Origin: a virus
DNA: 62,813 bases
IMG/VR virus record: IMGVR_UViG_3300025711_000009
Strand: one strand, 5' to 3'
Shown: positions 1 to 29,374 of the stretch, piece after piece
Numbering within the stretch: the first letter of the stretch is position 1
Layout: each line of letters opens with the position of its first letter
The notes under the pieces: model-generated
Database searches by the model: none
What the model was told of the DNA's origin: nothing
The model's input: the letters and a program-made list of their open reading frames with translations, nothing else
Made by a program: the position numbers and the translations under genes

Positions 1-127
1 ACAAGGCCGCGCGCGCCGCCGCTTCCTACGTCCGACGCCAGCCGAGCGCCGCCTGATGGCCGCCTCCGCCCAGTCGGGCCACAGCATCATCGACCAGCCG
101 GCAACCCCCGCAGCGTGCGCCCAGGAT
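1..127. repeat. Terminal overlap copy 1 (identical to 62687-62813)
   Basis: Read directly: acaaggccgcgcgcgccgcc...gcgtgcgcccaggat occurs at both window ends. Confidence 0.95.
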
Positions 128-1999: not shown

Positions 2000-3532
2000 G
2001 TGACCAGCGACCACCGTTCCTGGCAGGAACGCGACGCGGAAGCCGAGCTGATCCGGGTCAAGACAGCGAACGTGGCCGCCAGCGCGGACGCGGACCGGCG
2101 CCGCCGGGAGGCCCTCGACGCCCCGAAGATTGAAGCCGCCCTGGCCAGGGCCGCGGAGATCCGGCGAGAGGCCGCCGCGAAGGCCGAGGCTGAGGAGAAG
2201 GCCAAGGCCGAAGAGAAGGAAGCCGCCGCTAAGGCCCGCGCCGAAGCGCTCGCCGCCGCGAAGGCTGAAGCCGAACGCCAGGCCGAGATCGCCCGCCGTG
2301 ACGCACGGGCCGCCAAGGCAGTGAACATCGCCGTGGTCGCCGCCCTGCTCGTGGCCCTGCCGCTGCAGCTCCGCACCTTCTGGAACCCCGACCGCTGGTG
2401 GGAAGTCGCCGTACCGTTCGTCCTCGAAGGCCTCGCCTGGGTGTTCATCCGCCTCGCCGAAGCTGCCATCCCCGCCCGCCGCATGGTGTGGCACTACATC
2501 GTCGGAGTGTTCGCCTGCTCCGCGTTCGCCGCGACGGTGAACGCCCTGGACGGGTTCATGCACGACGACATCGGCCCGATCTTCGGCATCGTCGGCGGCG
2601 TCTGCTCCATCGCCGGCCCCGGAATCAAGGTCGTGCACGAGTTCGCCGCCCGAGCCAAGGCCGGCAAGGCGACCTGGACGGAGAAGAAGATCGCCGAGGC
2701 CAACGCCGCCCAAGCGGCGGCCGAGGCTGAGGTCCGTAAGGCCGAGCTGGCCGCCCAGACCGAAGCTAAGCGCCGTGAGGCCGACGCCCGCCAGAAGGCC
2801 GAAGCGGACAAGCGCGCCGCCCACGAAGCGAAGGTCGCCGCAGACAAGGCCGCCGCCGAGGCCGCCCTTGCCGCCCAGGACGAGCAGCGCAAGAACCTCT
2901 ACCCAGGAGCCTGGCAGCAGTATGAGCTGATCCTCGCCGCCAACCCGCTCGGGTCCATCAGCCGGGACCGCGCCTGGGACGAGGCCCGCCGAGCCGCCGA
3001 TCACCCGGACGTCTGGGACCACTACCGGGTCTTGGTCCTGAACACCGTCAACGTCAAGGCGGCCGACCTGTGGGCCGACGCCTGGGCGACAGTGAAAGGG
3101 CTCCCCGTCGGTCAGACGATCGAGTCTCTGGCCGCAAAGCTGGCGGCTCGGGAGTACGTGAACCAGACCTTGGCCGAGCACATGGACGCCGCCGGATACC
3201 TGGCCGTGGAGGAACTCCTGGCGGGGATCTTCGGGGGTGGCGGCGGCGACGGCGGAACCCCCGCGAAGGGGGGGCCGAAGAAGCCTCGCGGCGGTCCATC
3301 CGAGGGCGCTGCAGGCCTTGTGAGCATTGGGCAGGAGGGGGATACGGCCCCGCGCTACAAGGACGTCGTAGAGCCCCTCTCTGAGGCCGACCTGAAGGCC
3401 GCCCGCGAGCTCCACGACGCCGACCCGGACGGCTTCTCCACCCCGGCAGTCCAGAAGCTGCTCGGTCGCTCCAGCCGCTACTCGAAGCGCGTTCGAGACG
3501 CCATCACGAACCCGAAGGAGGTAGACCAGTGA
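2000..3532 (+). CDS. Membrane protein with multi-TM core flanked by Ala/Glu/Lys coiled coils (DUF2637/spread-protein-like)
   Basis: 510 aa. KAEAEEKAKAEEKEAAAKA-type repeats lie on both sides of the hydrophobic core WWEVAVPFVLEGLAWVFIRLAEAAI...GIVGGVCSIAGPG. Sits directly upstream of the FtsK-like gene. Confidence 0.8.
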   Translation: MTSDHRSWQERDAEAELIRVKTANVAASADADRRRREALDAPKIEAALARAAEIRREAAAKAEAEEKAKAEEKEAAAKARAEALAAAKAEAERQAEIARRDARAAKAVNIAVVAALLVALPLQLRTFWNPDRWWEVAVPFVLEGLAWVFIRLAEAAIPARRMVWHYIVGVFACSAFAATVNALDGFMHDDIGPIFGIVGGVCSIAGPGIKVVHEFAARAKAGKATWTEKKIAEANAAQAAAEAEVRKAELAAQTEAKRREADARQKAEADKRAAHEAKVAADKAAAEAALAAQDEQRKNLYPGAWQQYELILAANPLGSISRDRAWDEARRAADHPDVWDHYRVLVLNTVNVKAADLWADAWATVKGLPVGQTIESLAAKLAAREYVNQTLAEHMDAAGYLAVEELLAGIFGGGGGDGGTPAKGGPKKPRGGPSEGAAGLVSIGQEGDTAPRYKDVVEPLSEADLKAARELHDADPDGFSTPAVQKLLGRSSRYSKRVRDAITNPKEVDQ

Positions 3533-5544
3533 GCACCGCCCCCGAGTACCCGCGGCTGCAGCTCGTCAAAGAACAGCCGGCCCCCCTCGAGGGCGTCGTC
3601 ATCGAGAAGGCCAGCCGACCCGCATGGCTGGAGGCCGCAGTCGATCACGTCAAGGCGAACAGCGGCTACGCCCCGCTCGTCGGCCGCGGCTACCGGCGGC
3701 TCGGAGCCCACTGGCTCGACCGCTACCACGACGACTACCCCGCGATGATCGAGACCGCCCGGCGCGAACTCCGCGAAGCGCCCGCCGCGAAGCAGCGCGA
3801 ACTCAAGACCCTCGTCCGCGAGCAGCGGGCCGAATACCGGCGCCACAGACTCCTCCACGCCGGAGTCACCGGCGCCTGGACCTTCGCAGGCGGAGCCGGC
3901 ATCGCAGCCGGCACCCTCACCGGCGGTCTCTGGGTCGACCTCGCCGCCGGGCTCGGCGCCTACCTCTACGGCATCTGGCAGGGAGCCGGCGACGACCCGC
4001 AGCCCCCTACGATCACCACCCCCGGACCGGTCGTCCCGATCCTCGGCGGGCCGACTGGCCCCGCCGATGACGAACCCGAACTCCGACTCGCCCTCGCCCA
4101 GCTCGGCTTCCCCAACGTCACCATCATCGACAACCCGCCCACGAACCCGGACGGCACCCGCACCATCACCTTCGACCTCGGCGGCACCGGCACCGTGACT
4201 GACCTCCGCAAGAAGACCGAGGGTCTCGCCGCCGCCCTCGGCCGCGACCTCACCATGGTCGACATCGACAAAGTGCCCGGGAACGCCGGTCGAGCCAGCC
4301 TCTGGACCGCCAGCGCAGACCCCTTCGAAACGCCGCGGCCGTCCCCGTTGCTCGCCCAGCGCGGAGCCATCGACTCCTGGCGTTACGGCGTCCCCGTCGC
4401 CTACGGCAAGCGCGGCAACACGATCAACCTGCCGCTCCTCAACCAGAACTTCGTCATCGCAGGGAAGACCAGGTCAGGCAAGGGAGTCGGCGCCTCCAAC
4501 CTCGCTGTCGGCACGGCCATGGACCCGTGGGTCAACCTCCGAATCGTCGCCGGAAAGGAGAACGGCGAGTGGGACGCCTACGCCAAGGCGGGCGTCGCCG
4601 CGACCTACTTCAAGCCCAACCCCGAACGACTCCTCGCCCTCCTGCAGGCGCTGCTTGCCGACAAGAAGCGCCGGGAGCGAGAGCTCGGCAAGCTCGGCAA
4701 GTCCAAGCTCATCCACGACCTTCGCCCGCAGATCGGCGGAGTCGAACTGCTGATCATCGACGAGCTTGCGACGTACACCCGGCCCGGGAAGCCGCTGCGC
4801 GACGAGATCCTCGAAGCCCTCATCGAGTACTCCGCCGTTGCCGCAGCAGCAGGAGAGCTCTGCGCCCTCATCACGCAGTACCCCGAGGTCGACGTCGTCC
4901 CGCAGGCCCTGAGCATGAACTGCGGCGGCAAATGGGCCATGCTCGTCGAGAACGCCACCCAGTCCAACGCCATCCTCGGAGCCGGTCAGGCCGGCGCCGG
5001 ACGGGACGCCTCGAAGTTCGACCCACCCCGGCCGGGACTGGGCTGGCTGGTCAACCCGTTCGCCGGGATCACCGACCTGGCCCGCTCCTTCGACCTGGAC
5101 GAAGACGAGCGCGGCGAGATCAGCCTGCTGATGCAGCGGGCAGCGGAGCAGCGGAGCATGCTCGGCCGTCTGTCCGGCCAGTGGGACGACCCGATCGAGA
5201 AGCACCTGCTGAACGCGACCGGCCTGTCCTCGGCCGCCGGCGGTCCGAAGAACGACGGCGTGCCCGGCCGTTCCGTCACGCAGCTGACGGGTGAGCAGCG
5301 GCTCCAGCTCGACGCCCTGCGTGGGGCGCTGGCCGCCATGGACCAGCTCGGCCGGGATGTCGCCACCCTCGACGAGATGACGGAAATCATCGGGGGCGGC
5401 ATGACCCGGGACCGGCTGAGCGAGCTGTTGCGCGCTGGAGGGGCGGGCGGCGCCGACAAGGTGAAGATCGACGACAAGTGGACCCGCGGCGGCTACCAGC
5501 GGGCCGACATCGCGGATGCCGAGAGGTTCCTGAGCGGATCCTGA
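3529..5544 (+). CDS. traB: FtsK/SpoIIIE-family dsDNA translocase, TraB-like
   Basis: 671 aa. N-terminal hydrophobic segment, Walker A FVIAGKTRSGKGVGASN, Walker B ELLIIDEL. GTGA overlap with the upstream gene. Confidence 0.9.
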   Translation: MSTAPEYPRLQLVKEQPAPLEGVVIEKASRPAWLEAAVDHVKANSGYAPLVGRGYRRLGAHWLDRYHDDYPAMIETARRELREAPAAKQRELKTLVREQRAEYRRHRLLHAGVTGAWTFAGGAGIAAGTLTGGLWVDLAAGLGAYLYGIWQGAGDDPQPPTITTPGPVVPILGGPTGPADDEPELRLALAQLGFPNVTIIDNPPTNPDGTRTITFDLGGTGTVTDLRKKTEGLAAALGRDLTMVDIDKVPGNAGRASLWTASADPFETPRPSPLLAQRGAIDSWRYGVPVAYGKRGNTINLPLLNQNFVIAGKTRSGKGVGASNLAVGTAMDPWVNLRIVAGKENGEWDAYAKAGVAATYFKPNPERLLALLQALLADKKRRERELGKLGKSKLIHDLRPQIGGVELLIIDELATYTRPGKPLRDEILEALIEYSAVAAAAGELCALITQYPEVDVVPQALSMNCGGKWAMLVENATQSNAILGAGQAGAGRDASKFDPPRPGLGWLVNPFAGITDLARSFDLDEDERGEISLLMQRAAEQRSMLGRLSGQWDDPIEKHLLNATGLSSAAGGPKNDGVPGRSVTQLTGEQRLQLDALRGALAAMDQLGRDVATLDEMTEIIGGGMTRDRLSELLRAGGAGGADKVKIDDKWTRGGYQRADIADAERFLSGS

Positions 5545-5705
5545 CCCCGGAAACCGGACCGTTTTGCCCGGAACGCCCCCCGGAAAGAGGGCGGAAACCC
5601 CCCGGAAAGCACCCGGAACGTTGCCGGGCCAGCCCTAGGCGTTCCGCTGCCATTCCGGGGGACATACCACCGCAAACCGCATGCATGCCGGGCCGATTCC
5701 GGCCC
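5543..5705. repeat. Array of CCCGGAA-type 7-9 bp repeats immediately 3' of traB-like gene (clt-like)
   Basis: Forward copies: GACCCCGGAAA, GCCCGGAAC, CCCCCGGAAAG, GGCGGAAAC, CCCCCGGAAAG, ACCCGGAAC. Inverted copies: GTTCCG, ATTCCGGGGG, ATTCCGGCCC. Confidence 0.75.
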
Positions 5706-5737
5706 GCAAACCACCACAAACCGCATTGGAGCTCACC

Positions 5738-5986
5738 ATGGGCAAGATCTGGAGCATCCAGACTCCGGGAGACGTCAAGGCCCTCGAGCGCTGGGCCCGG
5801 CCAGGCAAATCCGTCTGGGTCATCCGCGAGCAGGCACCCGGCTCCCCGTTCGGGCCATGGACCTGCGATCAGCGCCTCTGTACCGGCTACGGCTTCTTCG
5901 GCAAGCCCTCCTTCGAGGGCGACTCCGCAAAGAGCCTCCTCCGCTGGTACGGCGAGCTCCACGAAGTCCCGCCCTCCCGCACGTAG
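5738..5986 (+). CDS. Hypothetical protein (82 aa)
   Basis: Internal ATG (MGKIW) of track ORF 5681-5986; high GC3. Confidence 0.6.
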   Translation: MGKIWSIQTPGDVKALERWARPGKSVWVIREQAPGSPFGPWTCDQRLCTGYGFFGKPSFEGDSAKSLLRWYGELHEVPPSRT

Positions 5987-6033
5987 ACCCCACCGCGCAA
6001 CCCACCCCAGACCCGCCATCAAAGGAGAACGTC

Positions 6034-8334: not shown

Positions 8335-9045
8335 ATGCGCCGCCACCGTCTCATCTGGCTCCTCCTCGCCGCACTGATCGCCACGGCCGCCTGCACCCCC
8401 ACCGCGGCCGCCGCGACCCCGCCGACGATCCGCGTCATGCCGCTCGGGGATTCGATCACCGCCGGCCTCGGCTCCACCTCCGGCGCCGGATACCGGCTCC
8501 CGCTGTGGAACCGGGTCGCAGGCCAGTCCCGGTACCGGGTCGACTACGTCGGCTCTCAGCACGACGGCGCCATCCCCGACCCGGACCACGAGGGGCATCG
8601 CGGCTGGCAGATCGCGCAGATCCGGGCCGAGATCGACAGCTGGCTGGCCGCCTCCCAGCCCCGCTACGTGATCCTGCACATCGGGATCAATGACCTCGCC
8701 TGGGGCGCAGACCCCGCCGTCGCAGCCGGCCAGTTCGCCGACCTCGTCGCACGGATCTACGCAGACCGGCCCGGCGTCATCATCATCGTCATGGGGTTGA
8801 TCCCGACCAGTGCCGGGATACAGGCCCAGGTTGCCGCCTACAACGCCAAGATCCGCACCACCCCCGGGCCCCACTACGTGGACGCGCCCGCCCTCACCAG
8901 CAGTGAGATGGTCGACGAGCTCCACCCCAACGACCAGGGCTACCAGCGGATCGGCGACGTGATCTACACCGAACTCAACCGGCTGGAGATCGCGAGGCAG
9001 AGGGCCGGCAGTCAGCCGCCCGCCACACGGATCCCACGCGGATAG
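8335..9045 (+). CDS. Secreted/lipoprotein SGNH (GDSL) hydrolase
   Basis: Signal peptide with lipobox LIATAAC. Block I PLGDSIT, block III GINDL, block [10 protein letters not shown]. Confidence 0.9.
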
Positions 9046-9062
9046 ACCACGAGGAGGTGGCC

Positions 9063-11414
9063 ATGTCGTTCCCCGCTGGCGCCTCCACGATCACGATTGT
9101 CGGAACCTTCCCAGTCTCTGTCGGTGGCGGCACGCGTGCCGGTCGCGTGGTCTTCACCCCGACCGCGGTCCTCGTTGACTCCACCCAGCATGCGATCTAC
9201 AGCGGCGGCGGGCCCGTCGCGATCGCCAACGGGACCATGACGGCCACCCTGCTCTGCAACGACGACCCCGACATCAAGCCCACCGGCTGGCGCTGGCACG
9301 TCGAGGAACAGCCGGCTGGCGGCGTCTGGCGGGACTACTACATCGACCTGCCCTCCACCCTCGGGGCAACCGTCCACCTCGACCAGGTCGCCGAAGTCCC
9401 GGCGCCTGACGGAGGCGAAGGGGGCGCCGTTGGACCTCAGGGGCCGGCCGGCCCTGCCGGACCCCAGGGTGCTACGGGCGCCACTGGAGCAACAGGCCCC
9501 CAGGGCCCGGCTGGACCGACGGGGGCAACTGGCCCGGCGGGTGCCGATGGAGCGACCGGCGCGGCAGGCCCGCAAGGGCCCAAGGGGGATACCGGCGATA
9601 CGGGCCCCGCTGGGCCGGCGGGCGCGACAGGTCCGCAAGGGCCCGCAGGTGCAGACGGAGCCACGGGAGCTACAGGCCCCCAGGGTCCCACCGGAGCAAC
9701 CGGACCGCAGGGAGACGCTGGCCCCGCAGGAGCGACAGGGGCCACCGGAGCGACGGGCGCAACAGGGCCCACTGGGGCAACGGGCGCGCAGGGCCTCCAG
9801 GGCGTCCCCGGTGTGGACGCGTCCGGGAATCGCACCAGCGAGGTCCGCATCACCGACGGAGCCGTCCAGGATCTGGCCAGTGCCGCCGCCTGGACGATCG
9901 CCACAACCAGCGTTGGCACCCAGCTCAAATGCTCCATCCCCGCCGAGGTGGGCGACCGAATCCGCGTCGATATCGGCATGCTGTACTCCGGTACCCGCTA
10001 CCTCGACGCCGTCCTCCTGGATTCGGCCGGCGCCATCAACCTCTACGCAGGCACCCTCACCACCAGCCCGCTCGCCGAAGGCAACCCCGAGCTGTACCCG
10101 TCGACCTCGTTCGGCAAAGCATCCTCGGGGATTGTCTTCACTGTCGCGGCCGGACATCTCTCCGGCGGGCAGGCGACCATCGCCCTCGCCAACCAGGGCA
10201 CGGGCGCCGGCAGGGTCTACGCCTTCTCCGGCTACCCCTTCCGCCTCGGCCTGACCAACATTGGGCCGGCAATCGCCCCTTCCGGCATAAGCGTCGCCCA
10301 GACCAGCACGCCCACGTCCGGCTACATCAAGTACGCGCCCGCCGGAGTCGCGCTGTCCGGCAGTGACGTCACCGGCCCGTTCAGCTACCTCGGCGCCGGA
10401 GGCTTCCAGATCGGCGTCGGCACCCCCGATTCAACCTACGTCCTGCCGACGACGAGGTATCCCAACACCCGGGGCACGCTCAGCTCCAGCCAGTCGATCT
10501 ACAGCATCGAGTTCGGAACGGACGCGACCGCCTTCCAGCTGCGCTTCAACTGGCAGACCGGCGGATGCATCCGGATCACGGTCGACGGTCGCCGCATGAC
10601 CGACCTCATGCAGTCCCTGGGTGGCATCACCCTCGGCAGCAGCCACTTGATGACCGTCAGCCTGGGCGCCGCCCAGCCGCGAACGATCCGCCTCGACTTC
10701 AGCGTCGCCCCATACGGCGGGATTTTCCTCCCGCCAGGGGCCTCGATGTGGAAGCCAGCGACGCCGAGCAAGCGAATCATGATCCTCGGGGACAGCATCT
10801 CCGGTGGCAGCAGCATGAACACTGCTGGTGGCGCCGGAACTTGGTTCCCGCGGGCCGCCCGCCTCCTCGGGTACAGCGACATCTGGAACGAGTCCCTGGG
10901 AGGCACCGGCTACATCACGGCCGGCTCCTTCGCCACCCTCGGCACCCGGGCCCCGATCGACGTCATACCGAACGCCCCCGACACGCTGATCATCTCGGCC
11001 GGCTACAACGACAACGGTGGCAGCCAACCGTCCATCAGTTCGGCAGCAGCCGGCCTGTACAGCGCCATCAAGGCCGGCCTGCCCAACGCCGCGATCTACG
11101 TGATCGGCTGCTGGTCACCCAGCGGCTCCCCCGCCACGTCGATCACCAACACCGACAACACAATCAAGGCGGCCGCAGCTGCGGCCAACCTGCCGTTCAT
11201 CTCGCCCCTCACCGGCGGCATCTACAACTCGGCAGGCACGCTCATCGCCACCCACGGGGCGTGGATCACCGGCACCGGCCGGGTCGGCGCAACCACCGGA
11301 TCCGGCAACGCCGACACGTACATCGGTACCGACGCCGTCCACCCCACGGACGCCGGCCACAAGTACCTAGGCGACCGGGTCACCGCGGCAATCCAGGAAC
11401 TCCAGAACGCATAG
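9063..11414 (+). CDS. Collagen-like fibre protein with C-terminal SGNH hydrolase domain
   Basis: GAGGAGG RBS. About 40 Gly-X-Y triplets. C-terminal motifs [14 protein letters not shown] and [10 protein letters not shown]. Confidence 0.9.
9411..9815 (+). repeat. Gly-X-Y collagen-like triplet repeat (coding)
   Basis: [31 protein letters not shown]... read in frame. Confidence 0.9.
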
Positions 11415-13596: not shown

Positions 13597-13611
13597 AAAG
13601 AGGCCGGCGCC

Positions 13612-13944
13612 ATGGCCCGCATCCAGATCCTCGAACTGCCCACCATCTACCGCGAGCACGGCGACGACGAGACCCCGTTCGTTCTGATCGTTGACCAGTA
13701 CGTGCCCGAGCGACACCTCACCGGGCTCGACCAAGTTGAGCCCGTCTCGCAGTGGAACGGGCTGGCCGAGCGAATCGGAGCCCGTGCCGTCCTGGTCTTC
13801 GAAGAGGCCATTGAGATTCCGGCTAACGAGGTGCCCATCGGACCGGACGGTTACCCCGTTCGCCTGAGGGTCGTAGGTGATTTCACCGGCTTCCGGCAGC
13901 AGATCGAGGAACAGATCAAGTACGTAGAGGGTCGACTCGGATGA
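13612..13944 (+). CDS. Hypothetical protein (110 aa)
   Basis: High GC3; coupled to the HNH gene. Confidence 0.7.
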   Translation: MARIQILELPTIYREHGDDETPFVLIVDQYVPERHLTGLDQVEPVSQWNGLAERIGARAVLVFEEAIEIPANEVPIGPDGYPVRLRVVGDFTGFRQQIEEQIKYVEGRLG

Positions 13945-14234
13945 GCGGCGGCTGGCGGGGCTCGGATCGCAAGGCCCGGTTGCCTTCCGGCTGGTCAAAG
14001 ATCCGGGCTCAGATCCTGGCCCGCGACCCGGTGTGCAAGATCTGCAACGTGCGGCCGTCTAGGTTCTGCGATCACATCAAGGCCAAGGCCGACGACCATA
14101 GCGAGGCCGGCCTGCAAGGCGTCTGCGGCCCCTGCCACGACCAGAAGAGCAGCACCGAAGGTAACGCTGCGCAGCGTGCCAACCCCAGGCCTGGACGTGC
14201 ACGGCCGCCCGAACAGCACCCTGGACTGAGGTGA
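13941..14234 (+). CDS. HNH endonuclease (packaging-associated)
   Basis: CKICN...CDHIKAKADDH...CGPCHDQKS. Sits just upstream of the terminase genes. Confidence 0.85.
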   Translation: MSGGWRGSDRKARLPSGWSKIRAQILARDPVCKICNVRPSRFCDHIKAKADDHSEAGLQGVCGPCHDQKSSTEGNAAQRANPRPGRARPPEQHPGLR

Positions 14235-14473
14235 TCAGCGTGGCGCGTAAGCCCAACCCCCGAGGCAACGCCGAGACCTTGCGCAGGTACTGGAGCACAG
14301 GCCAAGGCTCAGCCAAGATCCGCTGGAACACGCCAGGCGACTGGACCAGGTGCAACCGGCAGTTGCACAAGTACCTCGGAGCTCGGGCCAAGGGTTACTG
14401 CCAGCTGCTCCACATCCGGAACACCGGAGTCGGCACAGGCAGCAGGGCCAACGTCGGCAGGCGGAGGCGTTAG
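14231..14473 (+). CDS. Conserved phage protein (80 aa)
   Basis: GTGA overlap. LRRYWSTGQGSAKIRWNTPGDWTRC-type motif, which I recall from head-module proteins. Confidence 0.6.
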   Translation: MISVARKPNPRGNAETLRRYWSTGQGSAKIRWNTPGDWTRCNRQLHKYLGARAKGYCQLLHIRNTGVGTGSRANVGRRRR

Positions 14474-14483
14474 CAGGTCGAGG

Positions 14484-14763
14484 GATCGACCGCAAGGGTT
14501 CGACAGCCTCGAACGTTCGATCGGTTGAGGCGAAGCAGTGATGATCGACTTCCCTGTCAAGGGGTTGACAAGATCAACATTGAAGATCTTTTGGATCTCC
14601 TAACCCATGATCATCGGCCCCCAAATTCCATGATCCTTTAGAAGGTTTCATGATCCGGGGGGATACCCTTGATCCACTTTTCTCAGGGATCGGGGCCGTA
14701 TAGCACCTGGAATCCTGTACGGGTTTTCTAGGCCCCTGACCTGCGCGAACACCGCATCTGATC
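14484..14763. promoter_or_regulatory. GATC-dense, lower-GC cos/pac-like region upstream of terminase
   Basis: 12 GATC tetramers counted in about 280 bp, four of them as ATGATC and two more as TGATC. No credible ORF. Confidence 0.5.
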
Positions 14764-14852
14764 AAGGGCGGCCCTGGTGGCGGCCCTTGCCTGCCTTTCT
14801 CGTCCGCCCCCTTGCTGGCCCTGGTGGCCGGCCGCAGACCCTGGAGGTCGTC

Positions 14853-15290
14853 GTGGGCACTCGTGGTCCCGTCCCCAAACGCTCCGAGGAGCGCCGCCGC
14901 CGCAACCTCGACGACGGCCCCGGTCTCATCCAGGCCCCGGCCGGCCCGCCGACTGACTTGCCGGAACTCCCGGAGCCCGACGAGCTGTGGCATCCGATCG
15001 CCACCGAGTGGTACCTCTCGCTCCGCGAGTCCGGCCAGGCCGCGTTCTATCAGCCCTCGGACTGGGCGATGGCCCGCTACGCCGCCGAGCTCATGTCCCG
15101 CGGCCTGCAGTCGGATCGCCCGCCGAACGGTCAGTACGTGGCTGCGCTCAACAGCGTGATGGCCTCGCTGCTGACGACCGAGGGCGACCGTCGGCGGGCC
15201 CGCATCGAGCTGGAGCGCAAGAAGCCCGTGACCGCGGTGCCGGCCAGCGTCACGGCCATAGCCGACTACCGATCTTCGATCGGTGGCTGA
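14853..15290 (+). CDS. terS: Terminase small subunit
   Basis: GTG start after GGAGG. N-terminus GTRGPVPKRSEERRRRN is typical of P27-type small terminases. Confidence 0.75.
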   Translation: MGTRGPVPKRSEERRRRNLDDGPGLIQAPAGPPTDLPELPEPDELWHPIATEWYLSLRESGQAAFYQPSDWAMARYAAELMSRGLQSDRPPNGQYVAALNSVMASLLTTEGDRRRARIELERKKPVTAVPASVTAIADYRSSIGG

Positions 15291-17013
15291 CGAGGAAGTC
15301 CCCGAGGTCGTCACCCCGTTCACGATCGGTCCGACCTGGAAGCGGGGACCGGATGGGAAGTTCCTGCTGCCCGAGTACACGCTCGGCTGGCATGCCCTCG
15401 CGTGGACGGCGACCTACCTGCAGCACTACGTCGGCGCCCCGTGGCGGTACACGCCCGAGCAGGCCCGGCTGACCCTGTGGTGGTACGCCATGGACCCGGC
15501 GACGAACCGGTTCCTGTGGCGGGATGGTGTCATCCAGCGGATGAAGGGCCACGGCAAGGACCCGCTGGTGGCGACCTTCGCGGCCTTCGAGTTCGTCGGC
15601 CCGTGCCGCTTCGGGCAGGTGGCCGACGAGGGAAACGAGTGGGGCGTGCCCGCGGGTCAGCCGCTGGGGCAGCCGCATCCGGCGGCCTGGGTACAGATCG
15701 CCGCAGTCAGCCAGGACCAGACCAGAAACACGATGACCCTGTTTCCGTCGATCCTGACGCGGCGGGCCATCGAGGAGTTCCGGATCGATCTCGGCAAGGA
15801 GATCATCTACGCCGACAAGGGACGGGCCCGGATAGAGGCAGTCACCAGCTCCCCTCGTGCATTGGAGGGCGGCCGGCCGACGTTCGTGTCCCTCGGGGAG
15901 ACGCACCACTGGCTGGAGTCGAATCAGGGTCACGAGATGGCGGCGGTCATCGAGCGTAACGCCACCAAGTCAGCAGACGGTGCGAGCCGGACACTGGCGA
16001 ACACGAACGCCTACGAGCCGGGCGAGGACTCGGTGGCGGAACGCACGCGGGAGGCCTTTGAGTCGGCCGCGGCCGGCCGTGCGGTCGATACGGGGCTGTT
16101 CTACGACAGCCTCGAAGCGCCCGCCGAAGCGAAGCTGACCGAAGCCTGGATCATTCCGACGCTTCGCGCGGTCCGCGGCGATTCGACGTGGCTGGACATC
16201 GACCGGTTGAAGGCGTCCATTTTGGACGTCCGCAACCCGCCATCGAGGTCGCGCCGCTTCTGGTTCAACCAGATCACGGCAGCTGAGGATGCGTACCTGG
16301 CACCCTACGAGTGGGACGCCTGCCCTCACGACGGCATCGACCTGCAGCCGGGCGACGAGATCGTCGTCTTCTTCGACGGCTCCAAATCAGACGACGCGAC
16401 CGGCCTGGTCGCCTGCCGCCTCTCGGATGGCTTTACCAAGACGCTCGGCGTCTGGCAGAAGCCGGCGAACTGGCCCGACGGTACCCCGTGGCGGGTGCCT
16501 CGCGAGGAGGTCGACGGCGTCGTGGATCTGGCCTTCGCCACCTACAAGCCGCTCGCATTCTTCGCCGACCCAGGCTCGGGCTTCGACGAGGCGGACGGCG
16601 AACGCTACTGGGACGGCTACATCGACGCCTGGGCCCAGCGGTACGGGAAGCGGCTGAGGCTTAAGGCGGTGGCCTCCGGTCACGGCCAGCACGCGGTCAT
16701 GTGGGACATGCGCGACCGGCGCCGACAGCAGACGTTCACCGAGGCCGTGGACCGCTTCTACCGGGACGTACTCGAACGCCAGCTCACGCATGACGGCCAC
16801 AAGGTGCTGCGTCAGCACATCGCCAACGCCCGGCGCCGCACCAACGCCTGGGGCTACACGATCGGCAAGGAGCATCGGGAGTCGGCCCGCAAGGTCGACT
16901 TGGCGGTGTGTGCGATCGGCGCGCGGATGCTGCGCCGGATGGTCATGAACTCGACGGCCTGGACCAAGAGGTCAACGGTCCGCGGTAAGGGACGGGTGGT
17001 GGTGCTGCGGTGA
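15283..17013 (+). CDS. terL: Terminase large subunit
   Basis: 576 aa at the expected position. Nuclease-domain motif VVFFDGSKSDDATGLV. Confidence 0.9.
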   Translation: MADEEVPEVVTPFTIGPTWKRGPDGKFLLPEYTLGWHALAWTATYLQHYVGAPWRYTPEQARLTLWWYAMDPATNRFLWRDGVIQRMKGHGKDPLVATFAAFEFVGPCRFGQVADEGNEWGVPAGQPLGQPHPAAWVQIAAVSQDQTRNTMTLFPSILTRRAIEEFRIDLGKEIIYADKGRARIEAVTSSPRALEGGRPTFVSLGETHHWLESNQGHEMAAVIERNATKSADGASRTLANTNAYEPGEDSVAERTREAFESAAAGRAVDTGLFYDSLEAPAEAKLTEAWIIPTLRAVRGDSTWLDIDRLKASILDVRNPPSRSRRFWFNQITAAEDAYLAPYEWDACPHDGIDLQPGDEIVVFFDGSKSDDATGLVACRLSDGFTKTLGVWQKPANWPDGTPWRVPREEVDGVVDLAFATYKPLAFFADPGSGFDEADGERYWDGYIDAWAQRYGKRLRLKAVASGHGQHAVMWDMRDRRRQQTFTEAVDRFYRDVLERQLTHDGHKVLRQHIANARRRTNAWGYTIGKEHRESARKVDLAVCAIGARMLRRMVMNSTAWTKRSTVRGKGRVVVLR

Positions 17014-18440
17014 CGATTCCTACCCTCCCCCTCCTGTCGCTGTCGGAAGAGGAGCTGGGCATTCTCACGATGCTCCGCTCGGACCTCCTGAACCAGCGCT
17101 TCAAGTTGGAGCTATTCGATGCCTACTTCAACGGCGAGCAGCTGGTCCGCGACTTGGGGATCAGCATTCCGCCGCAGTTGAAGACCCTTCACACGGTGAT
17201 CGGCTGGCCGCGTATCGGCGTCGAGGCACTGGAACAGCGTCTCGACCTTGAGGCGTTCCGTTGGGCGGACGGGGGCGACTCCTCGGATCTGCTGGAGATC
17301 GCCGAAGCGAACGACTGGTACGACGAGGCGTCGCTGGGACACCTGGACGCGCTTACTTACGGCCGCGAGTACATGGCGGTCGGCACCGGAGAGGCGGACG
17401 GTCCTCCGCTGGTGACGTTCGAGTCTCCGCTGGATATGACGATGGACTGGGACGCCCGGCTGAGGTTGGCGAGGTCGGCGCTGCGAGAAAGTCAAGGTGG
17501 GCAGCTCGGCTTGGGTCTCGCACCCGAGGATCGGGTCGTCTCCCTCTACCTGCCTACCGGGAACGTGTATGCGGTGGAAACTGACGGCGGCTGGGAGGTC
17601 GTCGATCGGGACGAGCACAACCTCGGCGTGGTGACAGTGTTGCGGATGGCGAACCGCCAGCGGACCGCGGACCGTGTGGGCCGTTCGGAGATCACGCCCG
17701 AGGTCATGTCCATCACGGACGCGGCTTGCCGTCGCCTGATGGGCATCGAGGTTGCCGCGGAGTTCTTCGGGGCACCCCAGCGCTACATCCTCGGCGCCTC
17801 GGAGTCCGCCTTCCAGGACGCGGAGGGCAACGCTAAGAGCGCCTGGGATACGTATATCGGCCGCGTCCTGGCTCTGGAGCGGGACGAGGACGGCAACGTC
17901 CCGACGGTCGGGGCCTTCACGGCTCACGACCCGTCCGGCCAGACCAAAATCATTGACTTGTACGCACGCATCATGGCCACGCAGCTCGGCTTGCCGCCAC
18001 ACATGCTCGGTTACACCAGCGACAACCCTGCGAGCGCGGATGCTATCCGCTCCAGCGAGGGCATGCTGGTCAAGAAGGCCGAGCGCAGGATCCGCAGGTT
18101 TAGCGCCACCCACCGGGAGGCCATGCGGTTGGCTCTGTGGGTGCGTGACGGGGAGCCGCCGGAGAAGAGCCGCCGCATTGAGACGGTGTGGCGCAACCCA
18201 GCCACCCCGACGATCGCCGCCCAGACCGACGCCGCGGTCAAAATGGTTCAGGCGGGGATTCTGCCCGCCGACGGCGACGTCGTGCTGGAGATGGCCGGCC
18301 TGACCGAGGACCAGCGGCAACGAGTCGCAGCTGAACGGCGACGAGCCCGCGGGGCGGACATGGTCCGACAGCTGACGGCTTTGTCCTCACCGGACGGCCA
18401 GCCGCACACGGTGGCTCCCGATGCCGTCGCCAGCGTCTGA
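17010..18440 (+). CDS. Portal protein
   Basis: 476 aa; follows terL with a GTGA overlap. Confidence 0.9.
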   Translation: MTIPTLPLLSLSEEELGILTMLRSDLLNQRFKLELFDAYFNGEQLVRDLGISIPPQLKTLHTVIGWPRIGVEALEQRLDLEAFRWADGGDSSDLLEIAEANDWYDEASLGHLDALTYGREYMAVGTGEADGPPLVTFESPLDMTMDWDARLRLARSALRESQGGQLGLGLAPEDRVVSLYLPTGNVYAVETDGGWEVVDRDEHNLGVVTVLRMANRQRTADRVGRSEITPEVMSITDAACRRLMGIEVAAEFFGAPQRYILGASESAFQDAEGNAKSAWDTYIGRVLALERDEDGNVPTVGAFTAHDPSGQTKIIDLYARIMATQLGLPPHMLGYTSDNPASADAIRSSEGMLVKKAERRIRRFSATHREAMRLALWVRDGEPPEKSRRIETVWRNPATPTIAAQTDAAVKMVQAGILPADGDVVLEMAGLTEDQRQRVAAERRRARGADMVRQLTALSSPDGQPHTVAPDAVASV

Positions 18441-19191
18441 CGGCGGCCGGGCAGCGGACGCGCAGCGCCGGGCGCAGCGCGGCCTGTCGCGACTACTGGC
18501 CCGGGATATGCGCGGCCTGCGACGGCTCATCATCCCGTCGCGGCTTGAGGCGTCGGTGCCAGAGTGGATTGAGGCAGTCCGGGCCCTGGTCGAGCAGTAC
18601 GGGGCGGCCTCCTCAAGCCTGGCGGCCGACTACTACGAGGCGGAGCGTGTGGCCGCCGCGGTCACCGGACGTTTCACGGTGCCGTTGGTCGGCCCACCGT
18701 CGGATGGGCAGGTCGAGAACAGCCTGCGATGGGCGACCAAGGACATCTGGGAGCGTGATCCGGATGATCCGGCCACCACTGACGCGCAGCGGGAGCCGCT
18801 GGAAGTCCGCCTGGAGCAGGCCGAGAAGAAGGCGGAGGCGGTCGCTCAGAAGCTGGTCACCGGTCAGGGTCGTGGCACCGTCCAGGAGGCGGTACGGCAG
18901 GATCGGCAGGCCACCGCCTGGGCACGCACGGCTGCTCTCGGCGCCTGCGCGTTCTGCAAGCTCCTCGCAACCCGCGGGGTGGTGTACAAGCAAGACACGG
19001 TGCGCTTCCGGGCCCATGACGGATGTCATTGCGGCGTGGTCCCGGTGTTCAAGGGACAGAAGTTTGAGCTGTCCGATCATGCGCGCGAGTGGGAGCGGCT
19101 TTACCGCGACTATGCCGCGCCCTATCCAGGCGACCAGCTGCGCCGGTTCCGGCAGGCGCTCGCCGAGCACGGGCATCTGCCCGTGCTGTAA
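18421..19191 (+). CDS. MuF-like head morphogenesis / minor capsid protein
   Basis: Located after the portal gene. Cys cluster CAFCKLLATRG...HDGCHCGVVPV. Confidence 0.75.
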   Translation: MPSPASDGGRAADAQRRAQRGLSRLLARDMRGLRRLIIPSRLEASVPEWIEAVRALVEQYGAASSSLAADYYEAERVAAAVTGRFTVPLVGPPSDGQVENSLRWATKDIWERDPDDPATTDAQREPLEVRLEQAEKKAEAVAQKLVTGQGRGTVQEAVRQDRQATAWARTAALGACAFCKLLATRGVVYKQDTVRFRAHDGCHCGVVPVFKGQKFELSDHAREWERLYRDYAAPYPGDQLRRFRQALAEHGHLPVL

Positions 19192-19245
19192 CCCATGGCC
19201 GCCCTGGAGGTGGCCTCATCTCAGCCCCTGGAGGGCCGTTTCACC

Positions 19246-19830
19246 ATGCCCGAAAACGAGGAGACCGAGCAGTCCGTCGAGGAACCGCAGGTTACCGAAA
19301 CCGCCCTGGAGGCGGACGGCGCCGAGGAAGAGCCCTTCGACCGGAAGCGGGCCGAGGCCGCGCTGAAGAAGAAGAACTCCGAGGCGGAGAACCTGCGCAA
19401 GCGTCTGAAGGAGCTGGAGCCCCTCGCTGCGAAGGCGAAGGAGCTCGAAGACGCCCAGAAGACCGAGGCTGAGCGGCTGAACGACCAGCTCGCCGCCGAG
19501 CGGGAGCGGGCCGACAAGGCCGTCCGCGCTGCGGTCGCCTCGAAGGTCGAGGCGCTGGCGCGCGACTTTGCCGACCCGGAAGACGCGGTCGGCTCGCTGG
19601 ACCTCACAGCCTTCGTGGACGAGGACGGCGTGATCGACACCGACGCCATCAAGGAAGCTCTCGCCGATCTCCTCAAGCGCAAGCCGCACTGGGCCCGCCC
19701 CGACGAGGGCGGCCCGCGCCGTCCCGCCCCGGACCGGACCCAGGGCTCCTCGGGCAACGGCAACAGATCCCCCTCCGAGCCGGCGCAGATTTTCGCCGGC
19801 CTCATGGAACAGGCCCTGAAGGGCCGCTGA
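19246..19830 (+). CDS. Scaffolding protein
   Basis: Glu/Ala-rich coiled coil between the MuF-like and capsid genes; GGAGGG RBS. Confidence 0.75.
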   Translation: MPENEETEQSVEEPQVTETALEADGAEEEPFDRKRAEAALKKKNSEAENLRKRLKELEPLAAKAKELEDAQKTEAERLNDQLAAERERADKAVRAAVASKVEALARDFADPEDAVGSLDLTAFVDEDGVIDTDAIKEALADLLKRKPHWARPDEGGPRRPAPDRTQGSSGNGNRSPSEPAQIFAGLMEQALKGR

Positions 19831-19845
19831 GAGAGGTAGCCCTCC

Positions 19846-20802
19846 ATGGCTCACACGAATCCCATCAAGCTGAGTGACGTCAACGCGACGTTCCTCCCCC
19901 CGACCCTGACCGGCCCGATCTTCGAGAAGTCGGTCGAGCAGAGCGCGGTCATGAGCCTCGCCCGCCGGGTGCCGCTGTCGATGTCGGCGAACACGGCCGT
20001 GCCCGTGCCGCTCGACGTGCCGACCGCGGACTGGGTCGAGCAGGCCGGCCGTAAGCCGCTCGGTACCGGCGGCGTCGACATCAAGACGATGACCGGCAAG
20101 AAGATCGCCGTCCTCATCCCGGTGGCGATGGAGGTCGTGCAGTCCAACGCCGCCGGCCTTTGGACGCAGCTCCAGTCCGACCTCCCGACCGCCTTCTCCC
20201 GCGCCTTCGACCGCGCGGCGATCCACGGCAAGACGATGAAGGGCGCCACCGGCCCGTTCGCCGACTACCTGGCCGCGACCACGAAGTCGGTCACGATCGG
20301 CACTGCCTCGCAGTCCACTGGCGGCATCTACAAGGACATCGTCAACGGTATGCGGGAGGTCGTCACCGACGACTGGGACTACACCGGCACCGTCGCCGAC
20401 CACCGTCTCCAGCTGGACCTGCTCGGCGCGACCGACACCACCGGCCGCCCCATCTTCGTCGAGACCCGGGACCCGGGGATGGACATGGCGGTGGCTGGCT
20501 CGCTGGTCGGCAATCCGCTGGCCTACTCCCGTGCCGTGTCCGGCAAGCTGCGCCGCCAGTCAGGGTCGGTCGACACCGGCCTGCGTGCCATCGGTGGCGA
20601 CTGGTCTCAGACCGCCTACGGCGTCGGCATGGACATCACCGTCAAGATCTCCCGCGAGGCGACGTACATCGACGAGGATGGCGGCGTGCACTCCGCGTTC
20701 CAGGAGAACCTGGTTCTCCTCCTGGCGGAGGCGTACTACGGCTTCGTCCTCGGCGACGAGGAAGCGTTCGTGAAGTTCCTGGCGGCGGGCGGCTCCTCCT
20801 GA
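19846..20802 (+). CDS. Major capsid protein (HK97 fold)
   Basis: 318 aa; position and sequence character fit. Confidence 0.9.
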   Translation: MAHTNPIKLSDVNATFLPPTLTGPIFEKSVEQSAVMSLARRVPLSMSANTAVPVPLDVPTADWVEQAGRKPLGTGGVDIKTMTGKKIAVLIPVAMEVVQSNAAGLWTQLQSDLPTAFSRAFDRAAIHGKTMKGATGPFADYLAATTKSVTIGTASQSTGGIYKDIVNGMREVVTDDWDYTGTVADHRLQLDLLGATDTTGRPIFVETRDPGMDMAVAGSLVGNPLAYSRAVSGKLRRQSGSVDTGLRAIGGDWSQTAYGVGMDITVKISREATYIDEDGGVHSAFQENLVLLLAEAYYGFVLGDEEAFVKFLAAGGSS

Positions 20803-21815
20803 TGCCGGGCGTGGGGGGTGGCCGGGCGCCGATGCGGATCGTCGCCCGGCTGCACGGCTACCCGCCGCGCCACAACGCCGGCGCCGAGTGGATGGTCCAC
20901 AGTCAGCTGCGGGCCCTCGTCGAGCGTGGGCATGACGTGTCGGTGTGGCTGTCCCGCTACACCGACGACAAGACCGACTACGACCTTGACGGCGTCCAGG
21001 TGGTACCGCTTCAGTCGCGCCTGGACGCCGCCTCGGCCGTCCGGCGCGCCGACGTGGTCGTCTCCCATCTGGAGAACGTCCCCTCGGCCGGCGCGCTGGC
21101 CCGCGGGTACGGCAAGCCGCTGGCGGTGGTATGCCACAACACCCACCGGCAGAGCTTCCGCGAGATGGCTGGCGGATGCGAGCTGGCCGTCTACAACTCG
21201 CAGTGGATGAAGCGAGAGGCGGAGCTCTTCTTCGCCGAGTACCCCAAGGGGGTCCGGCCCAGCCGGGACGTCATCGTCCGGCCGCCGGTCTTCGCCGAGG
21301 AATACCGCACCAAGCCCGGCAGCAAAGTGACCCTGGTCAACCTGAACCTGGAAAAGGGTGGGGCGCTCTTCGGCAAGCTCGCCGCTCGCATGCCGGATGT
21401 TCAGTTCCTGGCGGTCGTCGGCGCTTACGGCGAGCAGCTCGTCCCTGACCTGCCAAACGTGCAGGTAATCGACCACATGTGTGGCCACGAGATGCGGGAT
21501 GTCGTGTATCGCAAGACGAAGATCTTGCTCATGCCTTCGTCCTACGAGTCGTGGGGCCGCGCCGGGGTCGAGGCTTTGGCCTCCGGCATTCCGGTCATCG
21601 CCCACCCCACCCCGGGGCTGTGCGAGTCGCTGGGCGAGGCCGGCGTGTTCATCGATCTGCACGACGTGGACGGCTACGAGATGGCCATCCGTAAGCTGCT
21701 GACCAGCAAGACCGAGTACGGGCTCGTCTCGAAGCGGGCCAAGGCTCGGTCTGCCGAGCTGGATCCCGCTCCCGACCTGGCTACCTGGTGTGATGCCGTG
21801 GAGGCCCTGGCCTAG
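20802..21815 (+). CDS. GT-B fold glycosyltransferase (family 1/4-like)
   Basis: ESWGRAGVEALASGIPVIAH (EX7E motif). TGATG overlap with the capsid stop; an alternative ATG lies at 20832. Confidence 0.9.
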   Translation: MPGVGGGRAPMRIVARLHGYPPRHNAGAEWMVHSQLRALVERGHDVSVWLSRYTDDKTDYDLDGVQVVPLQSRLDAASAVRRADVVVSHLENVPSAGALARGYGKPLAVVCHNTHRQSFREMAGGCELAVYNSQWMKREAELFFAEYPKGVRPSRDVIVRPPVFAEEYRTKPGSKVTLVNLNLEKGGALFGKLAARMPDVQFLAVVGAYGEQLVPDLPNVQVIDHMCGHEMRDVVYRKTKILLMPSSYESWGRAGVEALASGIPVIAHPTPGLCESLGEAGVFIDLHDVDGYEMAIRKLLTSKTEYGLVSKRAKARSAELDPAPDLATWCDAVEALA

Positions 21816-21824
21816 GAGGCTCCG

Positions 21825-22241
21825 ATGGCGTTCATCCCTCCTACCGCCGAGCAGCTGGCCCTGTACCTGGGGCTGGAGGAAATCGCCGGCGACCGGGCGG
21901 ACCTGCTGATCGAGCAGGCTGTCGCGCTGGCGCAGTCGGTCGTCAAGCCGTTGCCGGATGAGGCGACCGCGGTCGTCCTGTCCGTGGCGGGGCGCGCCTA
22001 TGTCAATCCGCAGCAGGTGTCCTACGAGACGATCGGGCCGATGTCGGTCCAGCGTCCGACGGGCAGCGGCGGCCTGTATCTCACCAAGGCCGACAAGGCG
22101 GCTCTGAAGTCCCTGGCTGGCCGCGGCGGGGCGTTCACGGTCGACCCCACGCCATTGGCGGCCGACCCGTCGCCCACCTGGCCGGTCGATGAAGACTACG
22201 GCCCGGGGCTGGAGTACGAGCCGGGCTGGGGGTGGGTGTAG
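21825..22241 (+). CDS. Head-tail connector (gp6-like)
   Basis: EQLALYLGLEE...DLLIEQAVALAQSVV signature. Confidence 0.8.
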   Translation: MAFIPPTAEQLALYLGLEEIAGDRADLLIEQAVALAQSVVKPLPDEATAVVLSVAGRAYVNPQQVSYETIGPMSVQRPTGSGGLYLTKADKAALKSLAGRGGAFTVDPTPLAADPSPTWPVDEDYGPGLEYEPGWGWV

Positions 22242-22603
22242 TGCCCGCCCCGTATCCCTACGGAGAGACGGTGGTGCGGCTGCGCCGCGGACCGTCTCCT
22301 GGCCGGGACCCCCGAGGTCAGCCGATCCCGGGCACCCTGACGGAGGCTCCCATCCCGGGTTGCGTGGTCACCCCCAGGGCTGAGACGCCCCAGGTGGGCG
22401 GCGAGCAACAGCAGGCGCGGGACACCGTCATCGTCGGATGGACCGTGTACGCGCCGCCCGGATCCGACTGGAAGACCACCGACCAGGTGCGGATCCGCGG
22501 CGAAGTCTGTGAGATCACCGGCGAGCCGGGAGACTGGGGTCAGAACGCGTTCACGGGCTTGAATGGGCCGGTGCAGTTCGCGGCAGATCGGGTTTCCGGC
22601 TAG
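22241..22603 (+). CDS. Head-tail adaptor / head closure protein
   Basis: Called from position. GTG overlaps the upstream TAG; an alternative GTG lies at 22232. Confidence 0.7.
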   Translation: MPAPYPYGETVVRLRRGPSPGRDPRGQPIPGTLTEAPIPGCVVTPRAETPQVGGEQQQARDTVIVGWTVYAPPGSDWKTTDQVRIRGEVCEITGEPGDWGQNAFTGLNGPVQFAADRVSG

Positions 22604-22926: not shown

Positions 22927-22954
22927 GCAACCCCCTCAGTGAGGAGGCGAGGCT

Positions 22955-23688: not shown

Positions 23689-23762
23689 CCGGCCCAGGAC
23701 CGCGCCGGCCCTGTCCCGACCCCGTCCGTTGGCGGGGTCTTCGCATGTAGGAGACCCACCTC

Positions 23763-25184: not shown

Positions 25185-25203
25185 CGCGCGAGAGGAGGCT
25201 CTC

Positions 25204-29361: not shown

Positions 29362-29374
29362 GAAGGGGGGCGAA

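Follow-up and report, generated by a model that had tools for sequence, protein, structure and literature searches.

How does a DNA pump find the one molecule that it is meant to move? In plasmids such as pSVH1, part of the answer lies in a region called clt, where direct 8-bp repeats are recognized by the cognate TraB, a conjugative translocase that has been likened to FtsK (PMC4447253). The consensus of these TraB recognition sequences (TRS) in pSVH1 is GACCCGGA (PMC5133688), the part of pSVH1 TraB that recognizes clt spans amino acids 717-772 (PMC4447253), and the recognition has been credited to helix alpha3, as cited in PMC3583192. (We take the pSVH1 clt work itself, Reuther 2006 and Vogelmann 2011, as it is cited in PMC3583192, PMC4447253, and PMC5133688.) This paper is about a dense array of short repeats that begins right at the stop codon of a TraB-like gene in a stretch of viral DNA, IMG/VR record IMGVR_UViG_3300025711_000009. 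By "the window" we mean this whole stretch of 62,813 nt, and all coordinates are counted from its first letter.

Other plasmids offer variations on the theme. In pWTY27 (where the repeats are bound by TraA), pJV1, and pIJ101, cis-acting direct and inverted repeats adjoin or overlap the 3' end of a tra gene, as they do here. The pWTY27 clt consists of 16 bp of traA and 159 bp downstream and has been footprinted by the translocase itself, and the clt of pIJ101 lies near korB and not after the tra gene (PMC3583192). The motifs of all three (TGACACC and CCCGCCC; CCGCACA[C/G][C/G]; and G(C/A)AAC) are unrelated to the one that we describe. Further afield, FtsK with its orienting polar sequences (KOPS) and SpoIIIE with its recognition sequences (SRS) are hexameric pumps of double-stranded DNA, in which a C-terminal winged helix (gamma, in FtsK) recognizes an 8-bp motif that has an orientation. 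KOPS and SRS are scattered over a chromosome with a strand skew, whereas the window packs nine copies of its motif into 160 bp, the forward copies first and the inverted copies after them.

Integrative and conjugative elements of actinomycetes (AICEs) are 9-24 kb in size. In them, an integrase and an XRE or GntR regulator occur together with a Tra translocase and a NUDIX hydrolase (PMC2440964), and four gene kinds of this set (integrase, XRE, Tra, and NUDIX) are all found in the window; AICEs are without virion genes, whereas the window has a full siphovirus-type structural module. A precedent for a phage cycle and tra-dependent transfer on one replicon is the Streptomyces plasmid-phage pZL12, which has tra function (Zhong et al. 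2010, as cited in PMC3583192 and PMC4487206).

We argue that the array at 5545-5704 is probably the cognate recognition site, a clt with its TRS, of the translocase encoded just upstream. Much of this is what knowledge of pSVH1-type plasmids would predict, and the array would then be a further member of the clt/TRS group with a one-base variant of specificity. Less ordinary are the host, a phage-like circular replicon, and a natural switch of wing and motif on near-identical motors.

A phased repeat array at the traB stop codon

The TraB-like gene occupies 3529-5544 on the + strand and ends in a TGA at 5542-5544. Between this stop and the next gene lies a non-coding gap of 193 bp (5545-5737), whose limits are set by gene calls on the same contig and by a start codon that is conserved in relatives. 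The first forward repeat, R1 (CCCCGGAAA, 5545-5553), begins directly at the stop, so that the "GA" at its 5' side is part of the TGA. It is followed on the + strand by R2 (GCCCGGAAC, 5566-5574), R3 (CCCCGGAAA again, 5578-5586), the degenerate R4 (GGGCGGAAA, 5589-5597), R5 (once more CCCCGGAAA, 5600-5608), and R6 (ACCCGGAAC, 5611-5619), and the six together (5545-5619, + strand) give the consensus (C/G)CCGGAA(A/C). Three copies on the - strand come after them: GTTCCGCTG at 5641-5649, ATTCCGGGG at 5652-5660, and ATTCCGGCC at 5696-5704, with TTCCG cores at 5642, 5653, and 5697. An earlier note on this DNA, made by reading the letters without database searches, had described a non-coding stretch of about 190 bp with at least six forward and three inverted copies and two copies of a direct repeat, CAAACCGCAT; every one of them is where the note had placed it.

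The spacing of these repeats is regular. Successive forward CGGAA cores lie 21, 12, 11, 11, and 11 bp apart, which is one or two turns of the helix, and the core spacing of the array recurs in relatives. R5 and R6 together with the first two inverted copies make up a long imperfect palindrome (5599-5661) with 22-nt arms that are 77% complementary, in the position where relatives have the perfect palindrome GACGCGACCCGGGTCGCGTC and pSVH1 has GACCCGGACGCCCGCGTCCGGGTC. Six forward and three inverted short repeats within 160 bp, at the 3' end of a tra gene, are what one would look for in a clt.

Could such a cluster be an accident of base composition? A count over the whole window, which the earlier note had proposed as a check, places 5 of the 14 forward copies of CCCGGAA within 73 bp. 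When all 7-mers of the window were scanned, only CCCGGAA and a perfect (GAGCAGG)5 tandem reached at least five non-overlapping copies per 100 bp, and in Markov simulations (orders 1, 3, and 5) matched to the composition of the window, none of 300 sequences reached five copies, the maximum for any 7-mer being four. The CGGAA/TTCCG core occurs nine times in 200 bp against an expectation of 0.42 (Poisson P ~8e-10 per 200-bp segment, or ~2e-7 when corrected for ~314 such segments); the runner-up cluster in the window has three copies, and there is only one cluster of this kind in the 62.7-kb circle. Chance clustering is thus ruled out by the 7-mer scan, the simulations, and the core counts. The (GAGCAGG)x5 tandem lies at 53076-53112.

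Downstream of the palindrome, the + strand carries two boxes with the sequence CAAACC, CCGCAAACCGCAT at 5670-5682 and CCGCAAACCACCACAAACCGCAT at 5704-5727, within which CAAACCGCAT appears twice (5673-5682 and 5718-5727), and a GC hairpin (5689-5706) is found in this box region (5670-5727). The boxes are kept, just 5' of the ribosome-binding site (RBS), in both of the repeat classes described below and also in pSVH1 and pSG5 ("CCCAAACCGGTAyATA," at 4560-4580 of locus L084 and 3845-3860 of locus L085), where boxes of the form CCCAAACC, similar to those of the window, precede the RBS. Because they are conserved whatever the class of the repeats, we keep them apart from the class-specific site; their probable home is the leader, or a control region, of the downstream gene.

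The translocase and its C-terminal domain

The 671-aa product of the gene consists, in order, of an N-terminal helical region, a hydrophobic stretch, a motor, and a C-terminal domain of winged-helix type. The earlier note had called it TraB-like, and the label holds: profile, fold, and BLASTP comparisons all identify an FtsK/SpoIIIE-type motor in a divergent translocase of double-stranded DNA related to pSVH1 TraB. A profile of 25 homologues, run against the Protein Data Bank, found FtsK (2iuu, E=3e-10); Foldseek with the AlphaFold2 model (pLDDT 69 over the full length) found the FtsK motor 6t8b (E=1.5e-11), then TcpA and EssC/EccC; and BLASTP gave 29% identity to pSVH1 TraB over 359 aa (E=8e-25). 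The protein is also matched by pSG5 TraB, with 27.7% identity (E=5e-15). The protein also matches PHROG 1358, "FtsK/SpoIIIE-like" (E=1e-17), and PF01580 is recorded for many of its homologues. Ahead of the motor, a hydrophobic stretch of ~40 residues (~108-150, "GVTGAWTFAGGAGIAAGTLTGGLWVDLAAGLGAYLYGIW") is predicted, with low confidence, to be helical. The Walker A motif reads "GKTRSGKG" (residues 311-318, at 4459-4482) and the Walker B motif "LLIIDE." Throughout the family, "RSGKGVG" is invariant, with Gly where FtsK and pSVH1 TraB have Ser/Thr (GKS).

The C-terminal domain (residues 578-671, 5260-5541, + strand) is modeled by AlphaFold2 at pLDDT 83.5 with the topology H-b-H-H-b-b-H: H1 (588-607), a short strand, H2 (614-621), H3 (627-636), a beta-hairpin wing (645-657), and a last helix (658-668). 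When the domain is searched in isolation with Foldseek, winged-helix DNA-binding folds lead the matches, for example Rex 5zz5 (probability 0.99, TM 0.57, E=0.12), and the other nearest folds are MarR/ArsR-like proteins and LexA, with E-values that are non-significant. Topology and these weak matches, taken together, suggest a winged helix. The profile of the domain is also colinear with the C-terminus of pSVH1 TraB ("SVTAEKLGAL…TRVTGYPLARVEAA"; hhalign E=0.001). The wing and the last helix, the segment that varies with the repeat motif (see below), are encoded at 5449-5541 on the + strand (residues 641-671, "DKVKIDDKWTRGGYQRADIADAERFLSGS"), the wing itself reading "KVKIDDKWTRGGY."

How the locus compares with pSVH1 and pSG5

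In the pSVH1 sequence (NC_007431.1), copies of GACCCGGA(C) start just past the traB stop and are followed by the palindrome GACCCGGACGCCCGCGTCCGGGTC, inverted GTCCGG copies, and, immediately 5' of the RBS, "CCCAAACCGGTACATA." The window has the same order of forward repeats, palindrome, inverted copies, CAAACC box, and RBS, and in both, the array starts at the traB stop and has several forward repeats of 8-9 bp that contain CCCGGA. Both translocases, moreover, join an FtsK-type motor to a C-terminal winged helix, and "VTAEKLGAL" in the H3-like segment of pSVH1 TraB is nearly identical to the "MTAEKLGAL" of P0008, a member of the family found here. Because position and organization are the same as in pSVH1, the array corresponds to a proven clt. 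pSG5 (Streptomyces ghanaensis/viridosporus) has the same layout, with three forward copies of CCCGGAC, the palindrome GGACGCCGCGCGTCC, inverted GTCCGG, and CCCCCAAACC before the RBS.

There are differences as well. The motif is GACCCGGA(C) in pSVH1 and (C/G)CCGGAA(A/C) in the window; the wing is "TRVTGY" in the one and "KWTRGGY" in the other; Walker A has GKS in pSVH1 and GKG here; pSVH1 is a 12.6-kb rolling-circle plasmid, whereas the window is a 62.7-kb phage-like circle with an integrase; and homologues of SpdB2 and TraR were not recognized among the window proteins that we scanned (their number is given below). pSG5, a small plasmid, has the CGGAC-type motif, as does most of the family. 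The earlier note had compared the locus with pSVH1, and its statements on the consensus, on recognition by TraB, and on repeats at the 3' end of traB agree with the literature and with the plasmid sequence, as does its remark that the array sits in the position of a clt. It had also called the motif nearly the same as that of pSVH1, which is right; identical it is not, the exact 8-mer GACCCGGA being absent from the array.

The class of the repeats follows the wing

If the repeats are read by the translocase, a different reader should go with a different motif. We gathered 84 loci from GTDB genomes, IMG/VR, metagenomes, plasmids, and exact-protein look-ups, which reduce to 69 distinct downstream regions. 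At every locus inspected by eye or tabulated, a short repeated motif fills the non-coding gap after the traB homologue, a gap of ~170-240 bp where measured. Five loci (the window, L040, L041, L042, and L043) have wings of the form "W..G(G)Y," and all five have CGGAA arrays; each of the other four has 8-9 copies of CGGAA/TTCCG and 0 of CGGAC. At the 47 loci with "RVNGY" wings, the gap holds on average 6.0 copies of CGGAC/GTCCG versus 0.3 of CGGAA. That is, the CGGAA array goes with 5 of 5 window-type wings and with 0 of 47 RVNGY wings (Fisher p=3.8e-7, with kinship ignored). With other wings, the motif is an unrelated one (GGGTGGA for QVRGY and GTAGGAC for RTTGY), and a different C-terminal domain that ends in "NPRGYK" goes with CTGCTCG/CGAGCAG.

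Where the C-terminal domain is a different one (L008, L031, L057, and L001; L011, L026, and L028; L022 and L080; and L066-L070), traB is followed by arrays that are just as dense but built of unrelated motifs: CTGCTCG/CGAGCAG, GGGTGGA, GTAGGAC/GTCCTAC, CCGTGAT, and ACCCTGC, the last in eight copies. Together, these arrays make up a ready catalogue of putative TraB specificities.

For four relatives, the class of the motif was predicted beforehand from the protein alignment alone. P0005, P0008, and P0009, which have the window-type wing, were found to have CGGAA arrays, as predicted, and P0002, the closest homologue overall (77%) but one with an "RVNGY" wing, was found to have CGGAC, again as predicted. 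(L043, from IMG/VR, is the fifth locus of the CGGAA class.) When the gaps are aligned slot by slot, the repeats keep their positions: four forward slots change from GGAC to GGAA and three inverted slots from GTCC to TTCC, so that one class has GGAA and the other GGAC, with inverted GTCCG. One base fixed in nine copies, in two orientations and in conserved slots, looks like the mark of a common reader.

Mosaic relatives narrow down where that reader might be. The closest relative of the window in the motor domain has the other wing and the other motif. This locus, L039, on a Streptomyces erythrochromogenes-type contig, is 96-100% identical to the window in the motor DNA (4229-5129), yet from ~5330 through the array, identity drops to 64-71%, and across its flanks, N-terminus, C-terminal wing, and array it is just 30-70% identical. 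Such a pattern suggests that elements of different repeat specificity have recently recombined and exchanged the motor (or the ends). L040, by contrast, stays 80-88% identical to the window through the C-terminus and the array and then falls. From this mosaic of identities, it follows that the unit that travels together is the wing and the array, not the gene and the array.

A comparison of each segment of the window protein with all of the loci leads to the same place. Residues 641-671 of TraB separate the classes clearly (at least 65 for the CGGAA loci, at most 56 for the 47 CGGAC loci), residues 1-180 separate them marginally (52 versus 49), and H2-H3 fails to separate them (64 versus 82). 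No neighboring gene tracks the motif class, neither the upstream gene for a 510-aa protein, nor DUF7739, nor the downstream genes for 82 and 151 aa, nor DUF6197. The motif class thus follows the wing, and not similarity of the motor or the identity of the neighbors, as would be expected of repeats specific for a cognate TraB. The earlier note had read the region as clt-like from the window alone, and a motif that changes with the TraB wing over 69 distinct loci lends that reading its strongest support.

A possible mechanism

What might the pair of protein and site do? An FtsK-type hexamer, anchored in the membrane, would bear six C-terminal winged-helix domains, and these would bind the repeats, which the 11-bp phasing would put on one face of the helix. 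Binding would load the ring onto the circular replicon, and the motor would then pump double-stranded DNA. Within each repeat, the CCCGG part, common to the pSVH1-type motif, may be read by the conserved helix 3, and the last base (A in the window; C in pSVH1 and most relatives) by the variable beta-hairpin wing and the last helix. We consider this division of labor, in which helix 3 reads CCCGG and the wing reads the variable 3' base, a reasonable inference. The outcome would be conjugative transfer and intramycelial spread of a phage-like element.

Several observations weigh against this account, and the reader should have them in one place. Pfam and NCBIfam scans of this TraB copy returned nothing, the protein falling below the FtsK_SpoIIIE threshold. 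The GKG of its Walker A motif may be why the Pfam scores are weak, and with a glycine there one must ask how Mg-ATP is bound, so that activity of the motor cannot be assumed. In the Foldseek search with the C-terminal domain, nothing fell below an E-value of 0.1 and FtsK gamma was outside the top 50, and the hhalign probability against the pSVH1 C-terminus is just 21%. The segment that discriminates between the classes here is the wing and not helix 3, unlike in pSVH1. In place of the expected companions of a transfer module, we found no GntR-type TraR (the Kil-Kor partner) and no recognizable Spd among the 34 proteins scanned of ~82 open reading frames (ORFs), although the ~48 unscanned ORFs are mostly small and Spd proteins are poorly conserved, which makes the absence of Spd weak evidence. 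The phage-like nature of the replicon, moreover, had escaped the earlier note, and a pump on such a host may serve some task other than conjugation.

The covariation itself also has a simpler reading in part. The region coding for the wing lies 4-96 bp from the array, and adjacency of this kind can, by linkage alone, give covariation; the five loci of the CGGAA class may, for the block of wing and array, be one lineage. We think that there is a functional pairing beyond linkage because of the mosaicism, the segment test, and the uniform base in nine copies.

Other explanations

The alternative that survives best leaves the pair of protein and site as it is and gives it another job. The array could be a loading or orientation site for segregating or moving circular DNA of a phage-plasmid or prophage within the mycelium, for example, across vegetative or sporulation septa, in the manner of FtsK/KOPS and SpoIIIE/SRS, and not for conjugation from donor to recipient. 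The element does look the part, being a complete circular replicon that has genes for terminase, portal, capsid, tape measure, integrase, and replication; its TraB family is common among viral contigs in IMG/VR (17-92 kb); FtsK-like genes of unassigned role recur in Streptomyces phages (PMC13587820); and TraR and Spd homologues went unrecognized, as said above. Yet the architecture is that of pSVH1 and pSG5, where TraB is a conjugative translocase (PMC4447253), and a NUDIX hydrolase gene typical of AICEs (PMC2440964) is present at 60545-61042. Because pSVH1 TraB also drives intramycelial spread (PMC4447253), the two roles are not mutually exclusive. We consider this other job unlikely. The live alternative concerns the function of the pair, not its identity.

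The repeats might instead be operators for some other DNA-binding protein, a repressor or activator of the downstream operon, with TraB not binding them at all. They do stand directly 5' of a gene whose RBS and start are conserved, their palindromic symmetry is typical of operators, the conserved CAAACC boxes are close by, and the element encodes several helix-turn-helix (HTH) proteins. None of the neighbors, however, tracks the motif class, L043 keeps its CGGAA array despite a different downstream gene, and traB is followed by this arrangement both in plasmids of 12 kb and in phage-like elements of 45-92 kb whose other genes differ. A scan of 5300-5900 found no sigma-70-like promoter, which is weak evidence for Streptomyces. 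On balance, an operator that TraB ignores strikes us as improbable.

Could the repeats simply be the arms of a hairpin, a terminator or attenuator of traB or a structured 5' leader? The long hairpin at 5599-5661 is the main one in the predicted RNA fold, with the GC hairpin at 5689-5706 as a second, relatives have a perfect palindrome with arms of 10-11 bp at the same place, and the gap folds marginally better than its shuffles (z=-1.93, with 8 shuffles of 200 doing as well). The forward copies R1-R4, however, four of the six, fall beyond the main hairpin and pair weakly or not at all, and a hairpin needs neither 11-bp phasing nor an identical motif in every slot; it would allow any compensatory change, yet all nine copies have kept one and the same base. 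A consensus scan of 5300-5900 found no T-tract terminator, and Rfam, run on 5300-6000, gave no family and just two sub-threshold chance matches. As the explanation of the repeats, a hairpin is very improbable, although a terminator role could coexist with protein binding.

Phased short direct repeats next to a hairpin also resemble iterons, and RepAM of pMEA300 binds multiple 8-bp repeats able to form a hairpin (PMC2440964), so that an origin of replication or a centromere for partition, with a Rep or ParB-like protein binding to it, deserves mention. We give it hardly any credence: the replication genes (DnaB-like helicase, sliding-clamp-like protein, and RecT) are 42-50 kb away, the array always comes after traB in small plasmids, linear plasmids, and chromosomal elements alike, the motif class follows the TraB wing, and the four copies of TGTGGCTACAA at 62002-62102 are an alternative candidate for an origin or operator. 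A pac or cos site for terminase was rejected, because the array and the terminase gene are ~9 kb apart and plasmids that lack a terminase have the same array.

The element around the array

An exact direct repeat of 127 bp stands at the two ends of the window (1-127 and 62687-62813), so that the element is complete, 62,686 bp long, and either a closed circle or terminally redundant. From its genes at 13600-32400, 39700-43900, and 47800-55500, we read the replicon as a temperate siphovirus-like element. The virion genes include those for the terminase large subunit (15283-17013), portal (17010-18440), major head protein (19846-20802), and a tape measure of 1397 aa (25168-29361). On the - strand are a tyrosine integrase (41735-43108) and XRE-type HTH proteins (39726-40844 and 43464-43886), and further on come genes for the sliding-clamp-like protein (47838-48947), RecT (49396-50700), and the DnaB-like helicase (54099-55460). 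When window positions 1-25000 were compared with plasmids by megablast, the structural-gene block alone matched two Streptomyces "plasmids." A tblastn search with the window TraB found no match among the isolated phages of INPHARED; in IMG/VR, the family is present in 28 contigs.

On the circular map, the NUDIX gene named above (- strand) lies ~5 kb upstream of traB. The NUDIX protein Pif of pSAM2 blocks redundant transfer between donors. Such hydrolases are typical of AICE conjugation modules (PMC2440964). The gene just upstream of traB (2000-3532, + strand) encodes the 510-aa protein, overlaps the traB start with its end, and occupies the position of SpdB2 in pSVH1; against the 294-aa part of pSVH1 SpdB2 (locus L085), BLASTP gave a non-significant E=0.11 for it. 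The downstream gene (5738-5986, + strand; ATG at 5738, RBS GGAG at 5728-5731) encodes 82 aa with no family match, and DUF7739 and DUF6197, two of the proteins that flank the module, belong to families of unassigned function.

Some other features of the window deserve a record. The TGTGGCTACAA copies, three forward (62002, 62038, and 62095) and one inverted (62072), fall in non-coding DNA of lower GC near the contig junction and are candidates for operators or iterons. CCGCTA(A/G) is common to two tandem sets of 10-bp repeats: one, at 41575-41602 (ACCGCTAAGA ACCGCTAGGA TCCGCTAGAT), is just past the 3' end of the integrase gene, and the other, at 44007-44035 (CTTCCGCGAA CTTCCGCTAA CTTCCGCTAG), is in a divergent gap beside an HTH repressor-like gene; possibly, they are arm-type or operator sites for one protein. 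Two proteins have GDSL-lipase domains (8335-9045 and 9057-11414). The larger, of 785 aa, contains collagen triple-helix repeats, seen in the DNA as 27- and 81-bp tandem repeats at 9642-9795. Its gene lies between the TraB module and those for the virion, and the protein probably belongs to a tail fibre or acts on the cell wall.

What the array may mean

We venture one larger idea, tentatively, since we think it possible without thinking it likely. Complete, temperate, siphovirus-like elements of Streptomyces, a whole family of them (we count the 28 IMG/VR contigs, 17-92 kb in size, several "plasmid" records, and many chromosomal copies), may carry a functional module of TraB and clt. These would be hybrids of phage and AICE, spread both by virions and by naked double-stranded DNA pumped between hyphae. 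The wing and the adjacent array would be a specificity cassette that can be swapped, and the switch of a single base from GGAC to GGAA, read by the wing and not by helix 3, would keep the pump of one element from acting on another that shares its host.

If the array is the loading site of the pump, the element would be recognized and moved in cis by its own translocase, and a fragment of 160 bp should suffice to mobilize other DNA, which would make it a useful genetic tool. The FtsK/SpoIIIE-like genes that have repeatedly been noted in Streptomyces phages and prophages, with no role assigned, would also gain a testable hypothesis, namely, that their cognate array lies just after the gene. In the meantime, nature has provided GGAA and GGAC variants on near-identical motors (the window and L039), a ready-made test of how the winged helix of TraB reads DNA, and the same pair bears on how co-resident elements avoid mobilizing one another.

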